Shown here: piece after piece, positions 10,595 to 29,676 of the stretch
Numbering within the stretch: position 1 is the first letter of the stretch
How the letters are laid out: each line of letters opens with the position of its first letter
Source of the DNA: an uncultured Bacilli bacterium
GTDB taxonomy: Bacteria; Bacillota_I; Bacilli_A; RFN20; CAG-826
DNA length: 64,000 bases
Direction of reading: 5' to 3'
Assembly: GCA_934140155.1 (NCBI GenBank)
Contig: CAKPBC010000001.1
Span: forward strand, 589,009-653,008
Translations under genes and position numbers: made by a program
The notes under the pieces: model-generated
Told to the model about the DNA's origin: nothing
Database searches by the model: none
What the model saw: the letters and a program-made list of their open reading frames with translations, nothing else

Positions 10595-11881
10595 GTGAAA
10601 AAAGTAATAGTGGTAGGAGCTGGATTAGCAGGTGTAGAGGCTACATATTTTTTAATAAATAAAGGTATCAAAGTGGATTTATATGAACAAAGACCGATTA
10701 AAAATACTGGCGCGCATCATAGCGCTAATTTTGCAGAATTAGTTTGTTCTAATTCTTTGAAGTCTAATAATTTAGATAATGCTTGTGGATTATTAAAAAG
10801 TGAAATGCGCTTGATGAATAGTATAACTATGCAAATTGCGGATGAAACAAGAGTACCTGCTGGTAATGCTTTAGCGGTTGATCGTGATTTATTTGCAAGT
10901 AAAATTACCGAAATAATTAAGAATCATCCTTTAGTTAATTTTCATAATGAAGAATATGTTGACTTTGATTCTGACGCTTTGATTATTGTTGCGACTGGAC
11001 CATTATCAAGTGAAAATATTATTCAAAAACTAGAAACTATTACAGGAGAAAAAATGTTTTCGTTTTTTGATGCCTGCGCTCCAATTGTGGAAAAAAGTAG
11101 TATTGATTTTACTAAAGCATATTATAAATCTCGCTATGAACAAGGCGATAATAGTTACATTAATTGCGCCATGAATAAAGAAGAATATGAAAAATTTTAT
11201 GATGCTTTAATAAATGCTGAACTTGCCGAATTACATGATTTTGATAAAAAGTATTTTGAAGGTTGTATGCCAATTGAAGCAATGGCAAAAAGAGGAGAAA
11301 AAACTTTGCGTTATGGCCCTTTAAAACCAATGGGACTACGAAGAACACCCGAAGATCGTCCTTATGCCGTTGTACAATTAAGACAAGATAATGTTATTGG
11401 TAGTTTATATAATATTGTCGGTTTTCAAACTAATTTAACATATAGCGAACAAAAAAGAGTTTTCTCGCTTATTCCAGGATTAGAAAATGCTAAATATGTT
11501 CGATATGGCTTAATGCATCGCAATACTTATATTTGCGCTCCCAAACACCTAAATAGAGATTTGTCACTTAAAAATGCTCCATCTATTTTTATTGCCGGAC
11601 AATTATCTGGTGTGGAAGGATATGTCGAAAGTGCATGTTCAGGAATTATTGCGGCAATAAGTGTTTATAAAAGACTAAAAGGAGAAGAATTTATTGCTCC
11701 ACCAATAAATACAATGATTGGTGCTTTATTAAATTACTTAGCGATATGTTCTCCAAGTGATTTTTCACCAATGAATTCTAATTACGGAATCGTTCCGCGT
11801 GATACTAAGCTTGAAAAAATCGAAGTAAGTAATATTGCTCTTGCTTCATTAAAAGACTGGTGGAGTCATAATTATGAGTGA
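10595..11881 (+). CDS. trmFO: methylenetetrahydrofolate--tRNA-(uracil-5-)-methyltransferase TrmFO
   Basis: VKKVIVVGAGLAGVEA FAD fold, ELVCSNSLKS, GFQTNLTY, FIAGQLSGVEGYVES. GTG start at 10595 after AAAGGTGA. Confidence 0.92.
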   Translation: MKKVIVVGAGLAGVEATYFLINKGIKVDLYEQRPIKNTGAHHSANFAELVCSNSLKSNNLDNACGLLKSEMRLMNSITMQIADETRVPAGNALAVDRDLFASKITEIIKNHPLVNFHNEEYVDFDSDALIIVATGPLSSENIIQKLETITGEKMFSFFDACAPIVEKSSIDFTKAYYKSRYEQGDNSYINCAMNKEEYEKFYDALINAELAELHDFDKKYFEGCMPIEAMAKRGEKTLRYGPLKPMGLRRTPEDRPYAVVQLRQDNVIGSLYNIVGFQTNLTYSEQKRVFSLIPGLENAKYVRYGLMHRNTYICAPKHLNRDLSLKNAPSIFIAGQLSGVEGYVESACSGIIAAISVYKRLKGEEFIAPPINTMIGALLNYLAICSPSDFSPMNSNYGIVPRDTKLEKIEVSNIALASLKDWWSHNYE

Positions 11882-12785
11882 TGAAATTAGCATGTATAAA
11901 GAATATCTAAAATTAGAAAAAGGATATTCGGATAAAACAATTGAAAGTTATTTAGAAGATATAAAAAAGTTTTATAAATATGCCGAAAAAAGGGGATTTA
12001 ATCCTTTAAAAGTTTCTAATCTTACGATTCGTGGTTTTTTAAGCGATGAAAGAATTAATAATATTTCTAAACGTACTTTGAAGAGAAGATTAAGTGGATT
12101 AAGAAGCTTTTATGATTATTTAGAAAAAAATAAATATGTAAAATTTAATCCTTTTGTAGCGGTAACTTCACCTAAAGCAGATATTAAATATCCGAAAGTT
12201 TTATTTGATGATGATGTAGAAAAACTTTTAAAAGCTAACTTGGAAAGAAAAGATGAACTAATGGAGAGAGATCAAGCTATTCTTGAACTCCTTTATGCTT
12301 CGGGATTTCGTGGCTCTGAATTAGTAAATATTAATGTTAGTGATGTCGATTTTCGTGGAAGAATTATTAAAGTTATTGGTAAGGGCTCAAAAGAAAGGAT
12401 TGTTCCTTTTTCTATTGAGTGTCAAAAAGCATTGAACACTTATTACAAAGATTTAAGGCCAAAATTATTACTTAAATCTACAAGTGAAGAAATATCCACT
12501 AAATTATTTTTAAATAGTAAAGGTGAAAAATTAACTTTACGCGGTTTAGAATATATTTTGCATCAAATAGAAAATAAAACGGGAATATTTTTAGGACTTC
12601 ACCCCCATATGCTTCGTCATACTTTTGCTACGGGTCTTTTAGAACGAGGAGCAGATTTAAGAGTAATTCAAACGATGTTAGGACATGCATCTATTTCTAC
12701 AACTCAAATTTACACTCATGTAACTACAGAGGCGATGAAAAAAGAATATAATGAGGCGCATCCTCGTGCAAAAATAAAAAAATAG
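11874..12785 (+). CDS. xerC: tyrosine recombinase XerC/CodV-type
   Basis: N-terminal SAM-like domain (YLKLEKGYSDKTIESY), catalytic region ELLYASGFRGSEL ... HMLRHTFATGLL ... LGHASISTTQIYTHV. Conserved position after topA-trmFO. Confidence 0.85.
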   Translation: MSDEISMYKEYLKLEKGYSDKTIESYLEDIKKFYKYAEKRGFNPLKVSNLTIRGFLSDERINNISKRTLKRRLSGLRSFYDYLEKNKYVKFNPFVAVTSPKADIKYPKVLFDDDVEKLLKANLERKDELMERDQAILELLYASGFRGSELVNINVSDVDFRGRIIKVIGKGSKERIVPFSIECQKALNTYYKDLRPKLLLKSTSEEISTKLFLNSKGEKLTLRGLEYILHQIENKTGIFLGLHPHMLRHTFATGLLERGADLRVIQTMLGHASISTTQIYTHVTTEAMKKEYNEAHPRAKIKK

Positions 12786-12859
12786 CAACAAAAATCCACT
12801 CTTTGTTGATAAATATTCAATAATGTTGTATTCTTTTTTTGGAAACGGAGGAAAAAAAT

Positions 12860-13324
12860 ATGTCAAATAAAGTAAAAGGTTATTTGCTTGGAATTTTAGC
12901 TTCTTTAGCTGTAGTGGCTCTTTGGATTGTTCTTTATGTTTTTGTTGGCATTATTGCAGGATATATCGGTGCATTGATGGCACTATCAATTATCATGATT
13001 TACAAAAAATTTAATCCAGAAGATAATAGTAATGTTATTTACGTTGTTGCTTCAGTTATCGGATTATTTGAAATCTTCATTGCGGAATTTGCGAGTGTTG
13101 GCATTATGTGCGTTATGAACAATAAAGATTTTGGCAGTGAAGTGGCAAATTCTTTTGTTGGTATAGTACTTGATGTTGTTATTGCAGTCATTTTGTCGGC
13201 TTTAGTTTTATTCTATTACATTAGACAACAAACTAAAAAAGTTGAGACTCGTAAAGTAGAAAGTACAACTTCACCATTAGAAAACATTGAAACAAGTGAA
13301 AAAACAAACGAAAGCGAGAAATAA
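12860..13324 (+). CDS. small integral membrane protein (4 predicted TM spans, charged C-tail), function unknown
   Basis: ATG at 12860 follows a GGAGG RBS. The ORF-track TTG at 12839 is unlikely to be the start. Confidence 0.55.
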   Translation: MSNKVKGYLLGILASLAVVALWIVLYVFVGIIAGYIGALMALSIIMIYKKFNPEDNSNVIYVVASVIGLFEIFIAEFASVGIMCVMNNKDFGSEVANSFVGIVLDVVIAVILSALVLFYYIRQQTKKVETRKVESTTSPLENIETSEKTNESEK

Positions 13325-13326
13325 TC

Positions 13327-13737
13327 ATGGATTTCCAACAAACTAAAGATGAACTAATTACGCAAGGATTAATTTCATCTACTGAGGATTTGATTTTATG
13401 TGAAGATGCTCCTAGTAATTTTGATATTATTATGGGAGGAGCGTTAGGCGCGGCTTTAACTGCGAATAAGCGTAAAGTATATGCTTTAACTGTTGATGAT
13501 AAGCGTATCCAACTTTTTTATTTAGATAAGAAAACTTTAAAATACTTAAACTTAGTTGAGCGTTATAACATTAGCGATTTGAAGAAAATAAAAGCAAGCA
13601 CTTTTTTAGGCTATCAAGTTATATTTAAAACTAATGAACACACTATCAGTTTGCTATCTTCTAAAAAATATCGTGGTTATGATCAAAAAGAGGCTGTTAA
13701 GAGTATTTTTAACAAGTTAAAAGCATTAAAAAAATAA
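13327..13737 (+). CDS. hypothetical protein (possibly bacterial PH-like fold; not verified)
   Basis: 136-aa ORF starting 2 nt after the preceding stop. No motif recognised with confidence. Confidence 0.5.
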
Positions 13738-13745
13738 TTATTTAT

Positions 13746-13772
13746 GGGAAGTGATTTCGCTTCCCGTTTTTA
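13746..13772 (+). terminator. rho-independent terminator
   Basis: GGGAAG / CTTCCC stem, 8-nt loop, GTTTTT tail. Confidence 0.6.
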
Positions 13773-13795
13773 TTTGTTTAAAAAGCAAAAAAAAG

Positions 13796-13824
13796 TTGCA
13801 TAGTAATACTTACTATGGTAGAAT
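13796..13824 (+). promoter_or_regulatory. sigma-A-type promoter of rpsB-tsf
   Basis: TTGCAT (13796-13801), 17-nt spacer, TAGAAT (13819-13824), preceded by an A-rich UP-like tract. Confidence 0.6.
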
Positions 13825-13939
13825 AACTTGGCCTGAAAAATCAGGACTACACACATCATGGATTCATAGTTCGTGTCTTAATTACTTAAGGGACTATGTT
13901 CGAAGTGATGGAGGAACTAACAAAAGGAGGACTCATAAA

Positions 13940-14869
13940 ATGAGCGAAAAGGAAGAAGAAGTCGTAGTAGAAGAAAACGTTATGGAACAAGCTATGCCTG
14001 AAGAAGGTACACCTGTCATAACAATGAAAAAACTTCTTGAAGCTGGTGCACACTTTGGTCACCCAACAAGAAGATGGAATCCAAAAATGCAAAAATACAT
14101 TTTTGGTGCAAGAAATGGAGTTTACATTATCGATCTCCAAAAAACTGCAGCTAAAATTGAAGAAGCATATGCAGCTTTAAAACAAATCGTATTAGATGGT
14201 GGTAAAGTTTTATTTGTTGGAACAAGAAAACAAGTCCAAGAAGAAGTTATTGAAGAAGCAAACCGTTCTGGTTCATTCTACATCACAAACCGTTGGTTAG
14301 GTGGTACATTAACAAACTTCAAAACTTTATCAAACTCAATCCGTCATTTAAAAGATTTAGAAAAAATGGCTGATGATGGTACATTTGATGTCTTACCTAA
14401 GAAAGAAGTTGCTCTTTTAAAGAAAGAACAAGAAAAATTAATGAAGAACTTAGAAGGTATCAAAGAAATGCGTAAAGTACCTAACGCAATCATCGTTGTT
14501 GATCCACGTATGGAACACAATGCAGTTGCAGAAGGTCGTAAATTAGGAATCCCTGTATTTGGTATTTGTGATACAAATGCTGATCCAGATGAAGTAGATT
14601 ACGCAATTCCTGCAAATGATGACGCTATCCGTTCAGTACATTTAATCTTAGCAGTTTTAGCAGACGCTATCGTTGAAGCAAAAGGTGGACAAACAATTAT
14701 TGCTTACACTAAAGATGAAGATGATTCAGAAGTCTCTATGAATGATGCTTTAAAAGAAGAAGAAAAGAAAGTTGAAGAAGATGCTAAAGAAGAAAAACCT
14801 CAACGTAGAGCACCAAGAAAAAGAGTAAACAAAGAAGAAACAGCTCCAAAAGCTGAAGAGGAAAAATAA
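13940..14869 (+). CDS. rpsB: 30S ribosomal protein S2 with acidic N-terminal and Lys/Glu-rich C-terminal extensions
   Basis: [28 protein letters not shown] core. ATG at 13940 sits 8 nt after AAAGGAGG. The ORF-track start at 13751 is read-through of the leader. Confidence 0.93.
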
Positions 14870-14871
14870 AA

Positions 14872-15750
14872 ATGGCAAAACCAATTATTGAATTAATCAA
14901 AGTTTTAAGAGAACGTACTGGCGCAGGTATGATGGACTGCAAAAAGGCATTAGAAGAATGCGATTGCGACATCGATAAAGCTTGTGACTGGTTAAGAGAA
15001 AAAGGTATCGCTAAAGCAGCTAAAAAGGCAAGCCGTATTGCTGCTGAAGGTTTAACATTTGTTAAAGCATGTGATAAATGCGGAAAAGCAATTATCATTG
15101 AAGTTAACTGTGAAACAGACTTCGTTTCTAAAAGTGATGCATTTAATGAATTAGTTCAAGAAACAGCTAGAGTTATTATGCACAATAATATTGCTACTGT
15201 TGAAGAAGCAAAAGAAAATGCAGAAATCAAAGATTTATTTACTAACGCCACTGTTAAAATTGGTGAAAAATTAGATTTACGTCGTTTTGAAATTGTTGAA
15301 GCTTCAGAAGGACAAGCAATTGGTACTTACATCCACATGAAAGGTAAAATTTCTGTTTTAGTAGTTACTGATAAAGCTTGTGATGATGTTAAAGGTTTAG
15401 CAATGCACATTGCTGCGAATAACCCATTATATATCACAAAAGCTGATATCCCTGCTGATGTATTAGAACACGAAAAAGCCATTCAAATGGAAGCTGCTAA
15501 GACTGATGAAAAATTAGCTGGCAAACCAGAAGCAGTTGTTGCTAAAATTATCGAAGGTAAAGTTAACAAACAACTTTCTGAAACAACACTTTATGAACAA
15601 GATTATTTATTAGAACCAGGAACTACAGTTGGTAAGTTCTTAAATAGTCGTGGTGTTAATGTTGTTAAATTCGTACGTTACATGGTTGGCGAAGGCATTG
15701 AAAAACGTAAAGATGACTTTGCTGCTGAAGTAATGAGCCAAATTAAATAA
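14872..15750 (+). CDS. tsf: elongation factor Ts
   Basis: LIKVLRERTGAGMMDCKKALEE UBA-like N-terminus and CETDFVSKSD motif. Confidence 0.95.
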   Translation: MAKPIIELIKVLRERTGAGMMDCKKALEECDCDIDKACDWLREKGIAKAAKKASRIAAEGLTFVKACDKCGKAIIIEVNCETDFVSKSDAFNELVQETARVIMHNNIATVEEAKENAEIKDLFTNATVKIGEKLDLRRFEIVEASEGQAIGTYIHMKGKISVLVVTDKACDDVKGLAMHIAANNPLYITKADIPADVLEHEKAIQMEAAKTDEKLAGKPEAVVAKIIEGKVNKQLSETTLYEQDYLLEPGTTVGKFLNSRGVNVVKFVRYMVGEGIEKRKDDFAAEVMSQIK

Positions 15751-15760
15751 TTAAACTTTA

Positions 15761-15789
15761 AAGAACACTCCTTTTGAAGTGTTCTTTTC
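15761..15789 (+). terminator. hairpin/partial terminator between tsf and pyrH
   Basis: AAGAACACT / AGTGTTCTT 9-bp stem, 8-nt loop, short T-run. Confidence 0.5.
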
Positions 15790-15807
15790 ATAAACATTGG
15801 AGGTATT

Positions 15808-16530
15808 ATGAGTACATATAAACGTGTGTTATTAAAATTAAGCGGTGAAGCACTTGCTGATAAAAACAATAATATGATTCTAGAAAATTATAGTCTAGAT
15901 CAAGTAGCGGCATCTATTAAATTAATGGTTGACAAAGGAATGGAAGTTGCAGTCGTCGTTGGCGCTGGTAATATTTGGAGAGGCAAACTTGCTAAACAAA
16001 TTGGCATTGAAAGATCAACCGCTGACTATATGGGAATGCTTGGCACTATTATTAATGCTTTAGCGCTTCAAAGCGCTATTGAGAAGACTGGCATTGGCTG
16101 TCGTGTCTTAAGCGCTTTAGAGATTAAAGCAGTCGCGGAAACTTATATACGTCGCCGCGCAATTAGACATTTAGAAAAAGGCCGTGTAGTTATATTTGCT
16201 GGTGGTACAGGTAATCCATATTTTACTACTGATACATGTGCGACATTACGTGCTATGGAAATTGAAGCTGATGCTATCTTAATGGCTAAAAATGGTGTTG
16301 ATGGCGTTTATACTGCTGATCCTAAATTAGATAAAGACGCTCAATTTATTAAAACTATTACTTTTGATGAAATGTTAAAACGTGAATTAAGAGTTATGGA
16401 TCCAACTGCAATTGCCCTACTTAAAGATAATCAAATTGAAATACGCGTTTTTGATATGAATGAACCTACAAATATTGAAAAATTAATTAATGGTGAAGAC
16501 ATCGGAACCACCATAATAAAAGGAGAATAA
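15808..16530 (+). CDS. pyrH: UMP kinase
   Basis: YKRVLLKLSGEAL, VVGAGNIWRG, GGTGNPYFTTD motifs. Confidence 0.95.
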   Translation: MSTYKRVLLKLSGEALADKNNNMILENYSLDQVAASIKLMVDKGMEVAVVVGAGNIWRGKLAKQIGIERSTADYMGMLGTIINALALQSAIEKTGIGCRVLSALEIKAVAETYIRRRAIRHLEKGRVVIFAGGTGNPYFTTDTCATLRAMEIEADAILMAKNGVDGVYTADPKLDKDAQFIKTITFDEMLKRELRVMDPTAIALLKDNQIEIRVFDMNEPTNIEKLINGEDIGTTIIKGE

Positions 16531-16534
16531 AACA

Positions 16535-17083
16535 ATGGATGAAGAGTTAATCTTAGAATGTATTGAAGAAATGAATAATGCCCACGCTAATTTTGAAAAG
16601 TCATTAGCGACATTACGTGCTGGACGTGTTTCTCCAGCTGCTTTAGAAGAAGTAAAAGCTGATTATTATGGAGAAAAAACTCCTATTACTTATATTGCTT
16701 CAATTACTAATATGCAATCAAATGTCTTAGTGGTAAAACCATTTGATCGTAATGATGTTAAATCCATCGTTGCCGCTATTAACGAAGCAAATTTAGGTGT
16801 TAATCCAATTAATGATGGAGATTCTATTCGTTTAGTATTCCCAACTCTAACTGAAGATCGTCGTCGTGATTTAGTTAAAGTTGCTAAAAAATATGGCGAA
16901 GAAGCTAAAGTCGCAATTCGTAATATTCGTCGTGATTATAATGACAAAGTTAAAAAGGATAAGGAATTGCCAGAAGATTTAGCTAAAAAGCTTGAAAATG
17001 ATATTCAAAAAGCAACTGATGAGGCTGTTAAAAATATTGATGCTTCTATAGCTAAAAAAGAAAAAGAAATAATGGAGATTTAA
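16535..17083 (+). CDS. frr: ribosome recycling factor
   Basis: LRAGRVSPAALEEVKADYYG, PTLTEDRRRDLVK, IRNIRRD motifs. Confidence 0.95.
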   Translation: MDEELILECIEEMNNAHANFEKSLATLRAGRVSPAALEEVKADYYGEKTPITYIASITNMQSNVLVVKPFDRNDVKSIVAAINEANLGVNPINDGDSIRLVFPTLTEDRRRDLVKVAKKYGEEAKVAIRNIRRDYNDKVKKDKELPEDLAKKLENDIQKATDEAVKNIDASIAKKEKEIMEI

Positions 17084-17114
17084 TTTTATTAGGTAATTTC
17101 ATAATTTATAAATA

Positions 17115-17147
17115 TTGGGGATTTGAAAAAAAGTCTCCAATTTTTTT
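17115..17147 (+). terminator. rho-independent terminator after frr
   Basis: TTGGGGA / TCTCCAA stem (one G-U) followed by T7. Confidence 0.65.
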
Positions 17148-17306
17148 ATGCTGTTTCATCTTGCTTTTAATGTTATACTTTAAATATCAACTAGTAGTGG
17201 AGTTTATTTTTTTGTTTTTTGAAATAAAAATATCAACTCTCGGAAGAGTATGTTAATGTTTTATGACTATTTGTTTTATAATTATGGCGTAGGAGGAAAA
17301 AACAAG

Positions 17307-19277
17307 ATGGAAACAATAGGAGATAGAATTAAAAAGAAAAGAAAAGAAGCCAAAATGACTCAGCTTGAACTTGCGAATAAGTTAAGCGTCACTGATAGGG
17401 CTGTTAGTAAATGGGAACAAAATGAAGGAAACCCTGATATTAGTATCCTTCCTAAAATTGCAGAAATTTTCAATGTTACATTGGATTATTTAATGACAGG
17501 TAGTGAGCCAAAAAAAGAAATTATTATAATGTCGAAATTAGAACTATGTGCAAAAAGCGATGATCCGACGATGATAAAATCTTTAACATCTGATAGAGAT
17601 GAAAACGGAAAGAATCTTTTGGATTATGTAAAAAAATATAATAGTAAAAAAGTTTTAAAAGCATTAATAGATAATCATAGTTACCAAAATTATTATAATC
17701 GTCTTTTGCAGAGAGCATCTACAGTGTCTGCTACAAAGATGGCTATTGAAATAATGTTAACATGTATTCCAGTAGATAGAGAAAGAGAAGTAATAGAAGA
17801 AGTTTTTCACTCAGAAATTAGAACTACTGACGATAAATTTATAGAGGCTTTAAAGTGTAACATAAATGACAGTATAGAAATTGCTGAAGGTTTAAAAAGT
17901 GTTTTTAAATTTTTAGTAGAAAATTATGATGGTTTATCAAAAAAGCAAAAAGAATACTATTTTAATCTGGCAGAAAACGAAGAAGAAAGTGGACCTAATT
18001 GCTGGATTACAGCATATCCATATTTTGTTGAATACGCAATTTTAGAAAATAACGACGCATTATATGAAATGCTTATTTCACAAATCGAAAGACACAATAA
18101 ATGGGTCGAAACATCAAAAACTAGTATAAAAAAGCAACATAGAAATAGTGAATATGATTATTATCTGCAATTTTTTAAAGGTGTTAATTTATATTTGCTA
18201 CCATCAACATTCAATTATTTAATTTCCAAAAAGAATTTTAGACTTGCATATAGAGTAAATGCACTTTTAAGAAATCCACATACAAAAAGAGAAATTGAAC
18301 TTTTAGAAGTTGAAAATAATGATACTATTAACGAAAAAGAAAAAATAGAATTTCGTTGTATTGACTGTCATATGATAGTGTTAGAAGAAATAGAAAAATT
18401 AAAAGACTTAACATATATTAAAGAAATTTTAGATAATAACTATGTCAATTATTATGAAATGGTTTATAAATTATTAAAAACAAACAAAAAGGCTTTATTT
18501 AAGTTTTTTGTTGATAATAATTTAATTGAATTATCTGAACTTTTAATGAATGATAACGAGAAGAAATTATTAAATCAAAGCTGGGTGTATTTTAATTATC
18601 ACGCAGGCGATGAATTGACATTAAAACAATCAATTATTATTACAAACGATTCAAAAAAAGCATCAAAAGACAAAAAATATGTTTATTATAGAGATTTTGA
18701 GTATAAACTAGCTGAACTAATTGATACTGATTTAGATTTTGAATCACAAAAAACAAGTGATAATGCGATCATTAAATATTTTGAAATGTTTAAAAATGAT
18801 GTGTTTAATAAAATAAAAACAATAATAGATGCTGAAAACAAAGAAAAAGAAGAAAAGTTAGAAAAGGCGAGACTAACAAAAGAACTGACTCGTCCGTATT
18901 TTGAAAACCTTCTCTTAATGGGCAATGAAGATATGTTTATAGTTAAACTATGCTCGTTATTTGAGACTATATTGCGTTTTGATTATAAATGTGACCATGA
19001 TAATATTTATGAAAATATGAAACAATTTTTTGATAAAGGCCCTAAAAGCCGTGATATTGATGATGGGTGGGGATATATGACATTAGATACTGAATACGAA
19101 GAACGCTATGTAAAACCATGGAATGAAAAAAAAGATTTAATGAATAAATTAAGACTTAAAAGAAATTCTATAGTTCATCCAGAAAGAAACGAACACGCTG
19201 ATTTGAGCGAAGAAGAGTTAAAAAAATGTTTAGACTTTGTCTTTGCTGCTAACGGAGGAAATATATTCAATGAATAA
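17307..19277 (+). CDS. XRE-family HTH protein with long helical-repeat (ankyrin-like?) body and C-terminal HEPN-like domain (Rx4H)
   Basis: 656 aa from ATG 17307 (AGGAGG RBS). The N-terminus MTQLELANKLSVTDRAVSKWEQNEGNPDISILPKIAEIFNVTLDYLMTG is a classic XRE HTH. DENGKNLLDYVKKYNSKKVLKALIDN is ankyrin-like. The C-terminus LMNKLRLKRNSIVHPE carries R-N-x3-H (R619..H624, nt 19161-19178) flanked by helix-like segments. Confidence 0.6.
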   Translation: METIGDRIKKKRKEAKMTQLELANKLSVTDRAVSKWEQNEGNPDISILPKIAEIFNVTLDYLMTGSEPKKEIIIMSKLELCAKSDDPTMIKSLTSDRDENGKNLLDYVKKYNSKKVLKALIDNHSYQNYYNRLLQRASTVSATKMAIEIMLTCIPVDREREVIEEVFHSEIRTTDDKFIEALKCNINDSIEIAEGLKSVFKFLVENYDGLSKKQKEYYFNLAENEEESGPNCWITAYPYFVEYAILENNDALYEMLISQIERHNKWVETSKTSIKKQHRNSEYDYYLQFFKGVNLYLLPSTFNYLISKKNFRLAYRVNALLRNPHTKREIELLEVENNDTINEKEKIEFRCIDCHMIVLEEIEKLKDLTYIKEILDNNYVNYYEMVYKLLKTNKKALFKFFVDNNLIELSELLMNDNEKKLLNQSWVYFNYHAGDELTLKQSIIITNDSKKASKDKKYVYYRDFEYKLAELIDTDLDFESQKTSDNAIIKYFEMFKNDVFNKIKTIIDAENKEKEEKLEKARLTKELTRPYFENLLLMGNEDMFIVKLCSLFETILRFDYKCDHDNIYENMKQFFDKGPKSRDIDDGWGYMTLDTEYEERYVKPWNEKKDLMNKLRLKRNSIVHPERNEHADLSEEELKKCLDFVFAANGGNIFNE

Positions 19278-19932
19278 ATATCAATTAAATTTTTTAAAAC
19301 AAATAATTGTTAGTGTAGATGGAACCGATGGTGTGGGTGATTACGAATTAGATAATGAAGGCAACCTTATCATTATACAAAATGAAAACTATAACATCAC
19401 AAGTTATACTTTAAAAATAAAAAATAAAGATATATCTTCTGTTTTTTATTATATTAATGACTGGAGCAAAGTAAATTCAAATGATGATGTAATATCGGTT
19501 CCTATTGATTTCAATAATCCGACTAAAACAATTAAAATAGAATTTAAAAACGGGTTAGTTGATGACTTTGAGATAAATGTTTTGTTAAAAAGCGCAGATA
19601 AAGATGCATGGAATATAAAGCATTCAAGAGAAGTTAAAGAAGAAAGATTAAAAAATGTAGGGTTAGTTTTAAATAATGATGGTCATTTACATACTGTGAT
19701 TTTTAAACCATGCTGTGATGAATATTTATATACAATTGTTAAATGGTATGCAATAGGATATTCAAAAGGAAATTATTATAATACAATAAGCAATCATTTT
19801 TTAGAAGAACAAAAAATTCAAAATAGTTTTTATTCAAATATTGAATGTGCTTTTTATGTTGCTGCCGAAATAACTCAATTTGATAAAGATGGAAAAGAAT
19901 TAATATCATCAACTATTGGGTTCAAAAGTTGA
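19270..19932 (+). CDS. hypothetical protein, beta-rich, no family recognised (cassette gene B)
   Basis: 220 aa from ATG 19270 (GGAGGA RBS). Its start overlaps the upstream stop by 8 nt (ATGAATAA), implying translational coupling. Confidence 0.6.
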   Translation: MNKYQLNFLKQIIVSVDGTDGVGDYELDNEGNLIIIQNENYNITSYTLKIKNKDISSVFYYINDWSKVNSNDDVISVPIDFNNPTKTIKIEFKNGLVDDFEINVLLKSADKDAWNIKHSREVKEERLKNVGLVLNNDGHLHTVIFKPCCDEYLYTIVKWYAIGYSKGNYYNTISNHFLEEQKIQNSFYSNIECAFYVAAEITQFDKDGKELISSTIGFKS

Positions 19933-19957
19933 GTTTAGACTTGAGTAGGTGATAATT

Positions 19958-20932
19958 TTGAAATATTTATTTTTTGATATAGAATGCTCAAATTGTTTTA
20001 AAAAAAGTCCAAAAATATGCGAATTTGGTTATGTGCTAACTGATGATAAGTTCCAAGTTATTAGAAAAGATGATATACCTATGTCGCCTGGAAGAAAATG
20101 TGCTGACAATAGATTTGACACAACAATTTATAAAAGAGATCCAAATTTTCAGTGGGCATATGATCTTGATTATTATTTTGAATGTCCAGAATTTCTTCAA
20201 TATTATGAATTTATAAAACAATTGTTTAAAAAAGAAGATGTTTTAATATTTGGATATTCAGTCGAAAATGATGTTAGATATCTAGATAATGCTTTTAAAA
20301 GATATAAATTAAATCCAATTGAATATAAAATATATGACATCCAAAAAATGATGAAATATTATTCTGAAAAGAAAGAAAAAATTATGGGATTAGAGAATGC
20401 ATTTAAAAAGCTTTGTTCTATTGATGAGTTTATAAAATTACAACCGCATTTATCTAGAGATGACGCTATTATGGCAATGAGAGTTTTACAAAAAATGTGT
20501 GAAAATCTTAATGTTACCCCAATAGAAATGATAGAACTTTGTGATAAATGTAAATATGATTCCGCAGAGTATTTGACTGAATATTATAATAGACGAAAAG
20601 AAAAAGAGATTCTCGAATGTCGAAAATCATCAGGACTAGTAATATGGGAAGAGTTTTACAAAAGTGAAATATCATTTTTAGAAAACGAAAATTCAATTGG
20701 AAAAATAGTTACTATTAGTGGCAAAATAAAAGAAAATATAAATGCTTTAAATGAAGTAATTGATATAATTAAAGAAAAAAATTTTGTTGCTTTTGATAAG
20801 ATTGGTGGATCGGATTATTTAATAACATTGGATGAAGAAGATACAACCAGAATTAAAAAAGTGTTAAAGTATCCATATTCAGGAAAAGTAATTAGTATTC
20901 AAGAATTTAAAAATTTAGAGATAAAAATTTGA
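19958..20932 (+). CDS. DEDDh-type 3'-5' exonuclease (DnaQ/KapD-like) with C-terminal BRCT-like domain (cassette gene C)
   Basis: ExoI FFDIECS, ExoII FGYSVENDVRYL, ExoIII HLSRDDAIMA (H-x4-D). The C-terminal GKIVTISGKI...GGSDYLITLDEED...GKVISIQEFKNL resembles BRCT of LigA-type proteins. Start uncertain: TTG at 19958 after AGGTGA, or GTG at 19949. Confidence 0.7.
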   Translation: MKYLFFDIECSNCFKKSPKICEFGYVLTDDKFQVIRKDDIPMSPGRKCADNRFDTTIYKRDPNFQWAYDLDYYFECPEFLQYYEFIKQLFKKEDVLIFGYSVENDVRYLDNAFKRYKLNPIEYKIYDIQKMMKYYSEKKEKIMGLENAFKKLCSIDEFIKLQPHLSRDDAIMAMRVLQKMCENLNVTPIEMIELCDKCKYDSAEYLTEYYNRRKEKEILECRKSSGLVIWEEFYKSEISFLENENSIGKIVTISGKIKENINALNEVIDIIKEKNFVAFDKIGGSDYLITLDEEDTTRIKKVLKYPYSGKVISIQEFKNLEIKI

Positions 20933-29600: not shown

Positions 29601-29676
29601 CGGGACGTAGCACAATTGGTAGTGCGCTTGCTTCGGGAGCAAGAGGTCGTGCGTTCGATTCGCATCGTCCCGACCA
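29601..29676 (+). tRNA. tRNA-Pro (anticodon CGG), CCA encoded
   Basis: Hand-folded cloverleaf. Acceptor CGGGACG/CGTCCCG; D arm GCAC-AATTGGTA-GTGC; anticodon arm CTTGC-TTCGGGA-GCAAG (CGG); variable AGGTC; T arm GTGCG-TTCGATT-CGCAT; discriminator A + CCA. 76 nt. Confidence 0.9.

Follow-up and report, generated by a model that had tools for sequence, protein, structure and literature searches.

The 64,000-nt stretch analysed here (the window; contig CAKPBC010000001.1 of an uncultured Bacilli bacterium) carries a three-gene operon, A-B-C, between the housekeeping genes frr and uppS. In the protein encoded by gene A, an XRE-type helix-turn-helix (HTH) is joined to a helical body peculiar to the family and, at the C-terminus, to a HEPN-type domain in which the motif R-x2-R-N-x3-H is invariant. 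Next comes B, invariably adjacent to A and with a start codon that overlaps the stop codon of A, and then C, which encodes a DEDDh-type exonuclease. The operon as a whole is horizontally mobile. An earlier note on this DNA had treated gene A alone; its reading of the two terminal domains was supported, whilst B, C, the insertion between frr and uppS and a sister subfamily without the HEPN domain had been overlooked. The open reading frame (ORF) that it proposed is genuine, lying on the plus strand, ending at 19277 and having a good ribosome-binding site. Its start at 17307 is backed by a Shine-Dalgarno sequence (AGGAGG, 17291-17296) 10 nt 5′ of the ATG, and homologs of gene A all open with the equivalent of its M-x-x-I-G-D-R-I. 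Public automated gene calls place the start at an ATG at 17250 (675 aa), from where the coding sequence would traverse a -10-like box and the ribosome-binding site. The position of AGGAGG and the N-termini of the homologs therefore make 17307 the better-supported start. At 50% identity the family falls into approximately 300 clusters, and most of these come from uncultured Firmicutes of the gut and rumen.

The earlier note had proposed that an R-N-x3-H segment near the C-terminus is the catalytic signature of a HEPN ribonuclease, and this proposal was supported by the conservation of the motif, by profile matches in relatives and by fold matches. Its numbering of R619 and H624 was correct, LRLKRNSIVH spanning residues 615-624. 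A bare R-x4-6-H string is itself uninformative in this protein, since a second one (RFDYKCDH) is also present. However, all homologs that retain the C-terminus have L-R-x-x-R-N-x-[IVML]-[VAS]-H, and R616, R619, N620 and H624 were the sole invariant C-terminal columns in domain alignments of 27-35 sequences with identities down to 22-24%. Across 144 sequences R619 was invariant, and L615, R616, N620 and H624 were at least 90% conserved. N620 places a polar residue next to R619, as is usual for the Rx4-6H motif of HEPN proteins.

Profile searches pointed to the same residues. The Pfam family HEPN_RiboL-PSP (PF18735) matched the full gene A protein on the exact motif segment (E = 8e-4, 19.8 bits) and the isolated C-terminal domain more strongly (E = 5e-5, 23.7 bits), both scores falling under the gathering score of 28.4 bits. 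In gene A the aligned part takes in the R-N-x3-H helix and the terminal helix, and in short-form relatives it extends over profile positions 65-181 of 191. Relatives matched PF18735 too, 13 of 35 in one set and 66 of 112 family representatives in another, nearly all or all of them sub-threshold (best E = 8.3e-7). Among the best 25 of the 35 families matched by these 112 representatives, the other recurrent families outside the HTH were likewise of the HEPN clan, namely DUF4145 (7/112) and HEPN_MAE_28990 (1/112). Abi_2 gave no match to gene A at E-values up to 1, and was absent both from the families listed for the 35 relatives and from the best 25 of 35 for the 112. The RiboL-PSP-HEPN family has been described as distantly related to AbiD/AbiF, and was defined by fusion to an L-PSP endoRNase and by a neighbouring ParB gene (Anantharaman et al. 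2013, PMC3710099). Gene A has no L-PSP endoRNase fusion, and no L-PSP or ParB gene was found in any neighbourhood examined.

Structure prediction agreed with the profiles. The full-length AlphaFold2 model, built on a 55-sequence alignment, had a mean predicted local distance difference test score (pLDDT) of 89.2, and a separate model of residues 480-656 reached 93.7 and was all-alpha with one beta-hairpin insert. Searched with Foldseek against the PDB, the C-terminal model returned HEPN proteins on top, 4nqf (probability 0.96) and 2hsb (template modelling (TM) score 0.62), followed by YutE, SO_3166/HepT, AbiV and Csx1. The top matches had probabilities of 0.96 and 0.84 and TM scores of 0.44-0.62, with weak E-values (at least 0.17). 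The predicted fold around R619 and H624 thus best matches HEPN proteins. A fold search of the same domain against viral predicted structures yielded noise, and profile searches of the C-terminal domain and of B against PDB sequences gave nothing meaningful (spectrin and proline racemase at E of at least 0.06). On these profiles and models, we conclude that the C-terminus of gene A is probably a divergent HEPN domain nearest to the RiboL-PSP / AbiD-F branch, and a putative nuclease.

The N-terminal 65 residues had been assigned to an XRE/Cro-type HTH, and this was confirmed by a Pfam HTH_3 match over residues 8-62 (E = 3.5e-15, 56.2 bits against a gathering cutoff of 23). Predicted helices across residues 4-64 agree with the five-helix lambda-repressor-like fold, and the best HTH matches were to ICEBs1 ImmR, P22 C2, RstR and DicA, the first two being the closest solved structures and superposing at TM scores of 0.90-0.93 and a root mean square deviation of 1.0-1.3 Å. 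A fold search with the full-length protein against the PDB was dominated by the HTH and returned nothing usable for the body or the C-terminus. The positions of these and the remaining features are collected in Table 1.

Table 1. Features of the A-B-C operon and its control region, in window coordinates.
Feature	Position	Strand	Basis or remark
Intrinsic terminator of frr, upstream edge of the inserted module	17114..17141	+	Stem-loop and T-run; frr ends at 17083
Extended -10 element TGtTATACT (P1)	17171..17179	+	Read from sequence
Box 1, operator-like palindrome TCAACTA-g-TAGTgGA (TCAACTAgTAGTgGA)	17187..17201	+	Directly 3′ of the -10 element
Box 2, ATATCAACTCTCGGAAGAGTATGT, core AAGTAKG	17230..17253	+	Core conserved in all subfamilies
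Second -10-like box TATAAT (17277-17282) and Shine-Dalgarno AGGAGG (17291-17296)	17277..17296	+	Alignment
Gene A, HTH / helical body / HEPN-like protein, 656 aa	17307..19277	+	ORF confirmed
XRE/Cro-type HTH, aa 1-66	17307..17504	+	Pfam HTH_3; PDB matches ImmR and P22 C2
Weak ankyrin-like unit, aa 76-122, within the variable N-body (aa ~69-340)	17532..17672	+	hhalign
Helical core, aa ~341-440	18327..18626	+	Contains invariant E384
Long single helix, aa 487-524, entering the C-terminal domain	18765..18878	+	AlphaFold2 secondary structure
HEPN-like domain, aa ~525-656	18879..19274	+	Sub-threshold PF18735 matches; Foldseek top matches
Putative catalytic motif R616-L-K-R619-N620-S-I-V-H624	19152..19178	+	Conservation in 35 to 144 sequences
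Gene B, 220-aa orphan partner	19270..19932	+	ATG overlaps the gene A stop codon (ATGAATAA)
Gene C, DEDDh-type 3′-5′ exonuclease with C-terminal extension	19949..20932	+	Start uncertain by a few codons

An alignment of six loci showed that the control region of gene A is conserved between unrelated neighbourhoods. A -10-like hexamer occurs at the equivalent position in related loci, and its TGn extension could be read by eye in L096, L001, L097, L090, L007 and L098. Adjacent to it lies Box 1, with invariant columns TCAAC...GT.GA in the six loci. An element of the Box 1 type was present at the equivalent position in 12/12 loci with enough upstream sequence, nine of which were found by a palindrome search and the other three (L001, L004, L098) by eye. 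The half-sites fall into two classes, TCAAC...GTTGA and TCTACG...CGTAGA, which coincide perfectly with two versions of HTH helix 3 (V-T-D-R-A-V-S-K-W-E-Q or V-S-D-K-A-[VI]-S-K-W-E-[KS]), a co-variation confounded with phylogeny in that the two classes represent only two clades. Because its half-sites co-vary with helix 3, Box 1 is a putative operator of an A dimer. The suggestion in the earlier note that gene A represses itself gains support from this conserved, operator-like palindrome at the promoter. Invariant columns were also seen at the second -10-like box (TA.AAT.AT) and at the Shine-Dalgarno sequence (AGGA). Box 2 lies approximately 65-75 nt 5′ of the ATG, usually beside or within a short palindrome or hairpin, and was found in the window and in L001, L089, L090, L097, L006, L007, L098, L099 and L100. 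In contrast to Box 1, no co-variation with the HTH is seen for its core; candidate roles are a second operator, an activator site or a structure in the 5′ untranslated region.

Gene B is found directly 3′ of A in 13/13 non-redundant loci searched with a local hmmsearch. Genes of its size also lie directly 3′ of A in L096-L099, and in L100 the beginning of a B homolog directly follows a short-form A. B is homologous across all contexts examined and its family comprises approximately 100 clusters, a size described as about that of the A family. It had no match in Pfam, NCBIfam, PHROG, PADLOC or the PDB; from its sequence it looks beta-rich.

Gene C matched a generic CRISPR-associated DEDDh model in PADLOC (1e-5), phrog_192 (E = 4.3e-12) and, below threshold, Pfam RNase_T (E = 9e-4, 20.3 against 24 bits). 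Its residues D10, E12, D108, H167 and D172, which make up the DxE, D and Hx4D motifs, are invariant across homologs of 31-74% identity. C accompanies a HEPN-bearing A in the window, L001, L089, L090 and L097. Homology identified it in L001, L089, L090 and L007, and position and size in L097, L098 and L099, with additional Pfam DEDDh matches in the latter two. It was absent from L004, L006, L009, L010, L012, L091, L093 and L095. Gene C is thus optional where A has a HEPN domain, and it is present, together with B, in 3/3 of the HEPN-less loci examined (L007, L098, L099). In L096, a 96%-identical relative in which B is 99.5% but A only 95.2% identical, gene C is frameshifted by a 20-nt indel and split into 212 and 119 aa (L096:3684-4678), which points to a pseudogene or to an error of assembly.

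Between its two terminal domains the predicted gene A protein is all-alpha over residues 77-480 and, short beta elements aside, helical from residue 77 onward. The helical middle region described earlier is thus confirmed, whilst the ankyrin-like unit claimed within it found weak support, and over residues 76-122 only. There a slice of the family alignment matched the ankyrin consensus in hhalign with P of approximately 0.001-0.002 and a probability of 14-18%, compared with P of 0.6-0.9 for controls (TPR, shuffled). The remaining body gave nothing against the ankyrin consensus in hhalign. Pfam reported no Ank match in the gene A protein, and an Ank_2 match in 1/35 relatives (E = 0.007). We also considered a regulator of the RRNPP/TPR type. 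Foldseek gave weak matches to PlcR, ComR and PrgX (probability 0.7-0.96, TM approximately 0.2), and this reading was rejected on the low TM scores and on P of 0.35-0.85 against the TPR consensus in hhalign.

The conserved part of the family was delimited by comparing architectures. Of 143 representatives with the C-terminal domain, 71 consist of HTH, N-body, core and HEPN, 19, at only 340-370 aa, are short forms made up of HTH, core and HEPN and without the N-body, and 53 lack the HTH, the last probably being mostly N-terminal fragments. A sister subfamily (P0050-P0095, also P0105 and P0109; loci L007, L098 and L099) of approximately 580 aa keeps the HTH, N-body and core, has no R-N-x3-H helix, and ends in an ankyrin-like repeat and a conserved DDGWGYM motif. 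The core is common to the long, short and HEPN-less architectures. From this comparison the conserved chassis of gene A is the HTH plus the core, the N-body and the HEPN tail being modules that some members lack. The same DDGWGYM motif makes the beta-hairpin insert of the gene A HEPN domain (residues ~581-587). In L098 an additional protein of 329 aa with a weak HTH match lies between B and the DEDDh gene (L098:7683-8672), and the block as a whole is flanked by a serine recombinase and a tyrosine integrase.

Selection was estimated from a single pairwise comparison, the window against L096. The ratio of nonsynonymous to synonymous substitution rates (dN/dS) for gene A was 0.16 overall, and by region it was 0.02 for the HTH, 0.03 for the HEPN domain, 0.24 for the N-body and 0.31 for the core, the last from few sites. 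On these values the HTH and HEPN domains are functional and under strong purifying selection. The N-body holds 32.5 of the 42.5 nonsynonymous differences, and its status as the fastest-evolving part fits a recognition surface.

The operon sits past the terminator of frr within the conserved cluster rpsB-tsf-pyrH-frr-(insert)-uppS-cdsA-dxr-rseP-polC. The guanine-cytosine (GC) content of the insert (17.2-21.1 kb) is 0.22-0.29, compared with 0.30-0.365 in the flanks. L096 has the identical insertion site between frr and uppS, and relatives at 62-66% protein identity occupy differing neighbourhoods. No convincing direct repeats or att-like sites were found flanking the insert. Elsewhere, one distant family member adjoins a type III CRISPR-Cas effector module with Cas10 and RAMPs (L004:1-7579), and another lies between a CBASS-like cyclase with a WYL protein and a type III restriction-modification system (L090:1-6820, 11778-16146). 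Other neighbours include a Schlafen/AlbA_2-type protein and serine or tyrosine recombinases. A scan of genome contigs with the full-length alignment was less informative, as 76 of its 80 loci were generic HTH proteins and only L009-L012 were useful. An origin of the window copy from a prophage or plasmid was rejected following searches of phage, plasmid and viral-contig sequences. In the window at large, the plus strand carries 42 of the 45 ORFs that reach 180 aa or more, GC content is approximately 30% and a tRNA at 29601-29673 is the sole RNA gene reported by Rfam, a picture in keeping with the leading strand of an AT-rich Firmicute chromosome.

Taken together, we favour, at somewhat better than even odds, the reading that A-B-C is a mobile, self-regulating conflict module, be it an anti-phage, an abortive-infection or a toxin-antitoxin system. 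A dimer of A bound to Box 1 would repress its own operon and so limit expression, and dimerisation would also bring two HEPN domains together, as happens in other RNases of this superfamily. Either alone or with B, the fast-evolving N-body may sense a trigger or hold the nuclease silent; upon activation the HEPN domain would cleave RNA, and C could serve as an alternative or auxiliary nuclease effector. More tentatively, A-B-C may represent an undescribed immune family in which one polypeptide is both an operator-bound repressor and a trigger-activated HEPN RNase, with an orphan partner B and a modular HEPN and/or DEDDh effector. In that case, trigger sensing by the helical body would tie RNA destruction to the derepression of the operon.

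Several observations weigh against a conflict module. Clear defence-gene neighbours were found in only 2-3 of approximately 16 loci, and the window copy is surrounded by a cluster of housekeeping genes. The gene A family had zero matches in 50,697 phage records and 72,556 plasmids, and 2.9 million viral contigs contained only three of its loci. PADLOC 2.0 matches to gene A were restricted to HTH-bearing models and left its other parts unmatched, and B is without a recognisable fold. The HEPN domain must be non-essential to the role of the conserved core, because the HEPN-less sister subfamily keeps B and C. To these are added the sub-threshold PF18735 scores, the weak Foldseek E-values and the phylogenetic confounding of Box 1 with helix 3 described above. 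Moreover, it is from sequence that we infer DNA binding, toxicity, RNase activity, phage defence and what B does.

The same observations were used to weigh other explanations. A classical module resembling type II toxin-antitoxin systems, with A as HEPN toxin, B as antitoxin and autoregulation through the HTH, would stabilise genomic islands rather than act against phage. Such a module would account for the tight coupling and translational overlap of A and B, for a promoter that looks autoregulatory and for the recombinases of mobile islands that the module often adjoins, and pairs of a HEPN toxin with its own antitoxin are established (HepT-MntA and RnlA-RnlB, structures of which are among the fold matches). 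However, B also accompanies the HEPN-less subfamily, where no toxin would need neutralising, the gene order and the fusion of the HTH to the 'toxin' are atypical, and in profile searches B resembled no known antitoxin. We therefore regard it as unlikely, noting that it overlaps the conflict-module reading, as many toxin-antitoxin modules also act in defence. It is rather improbable that A is purely a transcription factor controlling B and C, its HEPN-like domain being non-catalytic and used for ligand or nucleotide binding or for dimerisation (compare MtlR). The HTH and conserved operator, the same operon kept by HEPN-less relatives and the weak fold similarity to PlcR, ComR and PrgX would all fit, and the table of Anantharaman et al. 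(2013, PMC3710099) includes HEPN families without the catalytic motif. The invariance of R619, the conservation of R616, N620 and H624 and the dN/dS of the HEPN domain, on the other hand, represent a catalytic rather than a degenerate HEPN signature, and TPR similarity is absent.

That the best HTH matches were to ImmR, P22 C2, RstR and DicA raises the question of whether A could be the immunity repressor of an integrated mobile element (ImmR/CI-like), the C-terminal part serving for example superinfection exclusion. Some loci do lie beside integrases or recombinases and one contig was flagged as viral, but neither an integrase nor an element surrounds the three genes in the window, L001, L089 and L097, and the phage, plasmid and viral-contig counts given above also argue against it; we consider this explanation quite improbable. 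Least probable of all, and disfavoured, is a spurious HEPN resemblance, that is a generic helical bundle with a chance R-x4-H string. Every database score for the gene A protein alone is indeed sub-threshold. Nevertheless, in dozens of independent relatives the sub-threshold matches share one clan and fall on the same residues, which is where all the invariant positions of the domain lie.

HEPN RNases are effectors of Cas13, Csm6/Csx1, RNase L, several Abi proteins and many toxin-antitoxin systems, and how they are silenced and switched on is the key question for each of them. In the gene A family the HEPN domain is permanently fused to a putative sequence-specific repressor head and accompanied by a strictly co-inherited partner of no known fold, whilst the HEPN-less subfamily provides natural 'experiments' in which the DEDDh exonuclease is present each time. 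Should A-B-C act in defence, it would add a sensor-effector design and protein family B to the catalogue; should it be a toxin-antitoxin or regulatory system, it would show nuclease-domain swapping on a conserved regulatory chassis. In either case it is a clean example of a small island within the otherwise very conserved rpsB-tsf-pyrH-frr-uppS-cdsA cluster. A literature search for HTH-HEPN-DEDDh systems returned only the CARF-HTH-HEPN protein Csx1, which is unrelated, and no XRE-HTH/HEPN protein with this set of partners. With PF18735-type domains known from validated defence systems, the effector type is familiar; new to the literature searched are its fusion to a repressor head, the orphan partner and the modular use of HEPN and DEDDh nucleases.

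Lastly, we compared A-B-C with known systems. In RNase L and Ire1 an ankyrin or sensor region precedes a KEN-type HEPN RNase that is activated by dimerisation, a logic analogous to that proposed for gene A. However, gene A has no kinase-like domain, its ankyrin similarity is marginal and no sequence relationship is detectable. The RRNPP regulators (PlcR, ComR, PrgX, Rgg) likewise place a large helical domain after an XRE HTH, but with TM scores of ~0.2 and no similarity to the TPR consensus in gene A. Closest in sequence to the C-terminal domain is RiboL-PSP-HEPN (PF18735), with which it has the Rx4-6H motif in common. The gene A domain differs in its sub-threshold score, in having neither the L-PSP fusion nor the ParB neighbour, and in always being tied to an XRE HTH, the helical core and partner B. 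HEPN domains of the PF18735 type occur in the validated anti-phage systems PD-T4-2, PD-T4-5, PD-T7-3 and ApeA (PMC10952713). These systems share the HEPN flavour, which is their presumed defence effector, but architecture and partners are different, and PADLOC, which includes these systems, matched the HTH of A alone and did not match B. HepT-MntA and RnlA-RnlB, in which a co-encoded protein restrains the HEPN RNase, offer a parallel to A and B, and HepT structures are among the fold matches of gene A. In contrast to these pairs, A-B-C has no MNT nucleotidyltransferase or RnlB-like partner and its HTH is fused to the HEPN protein. Finally, ICEBs1 ImmR, P22 C2 and 434 repressor share with gene A the HTH fold and, if Box 1 is taken as its putative counterpart, a palindromic operator at the promoter. 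Whereas these XRE autorepressors carry a simple oligomerisation domain or a peptidase-sensitive domain, gene A continues for approximately 590 further residues and ends in a nuclease-type domain.

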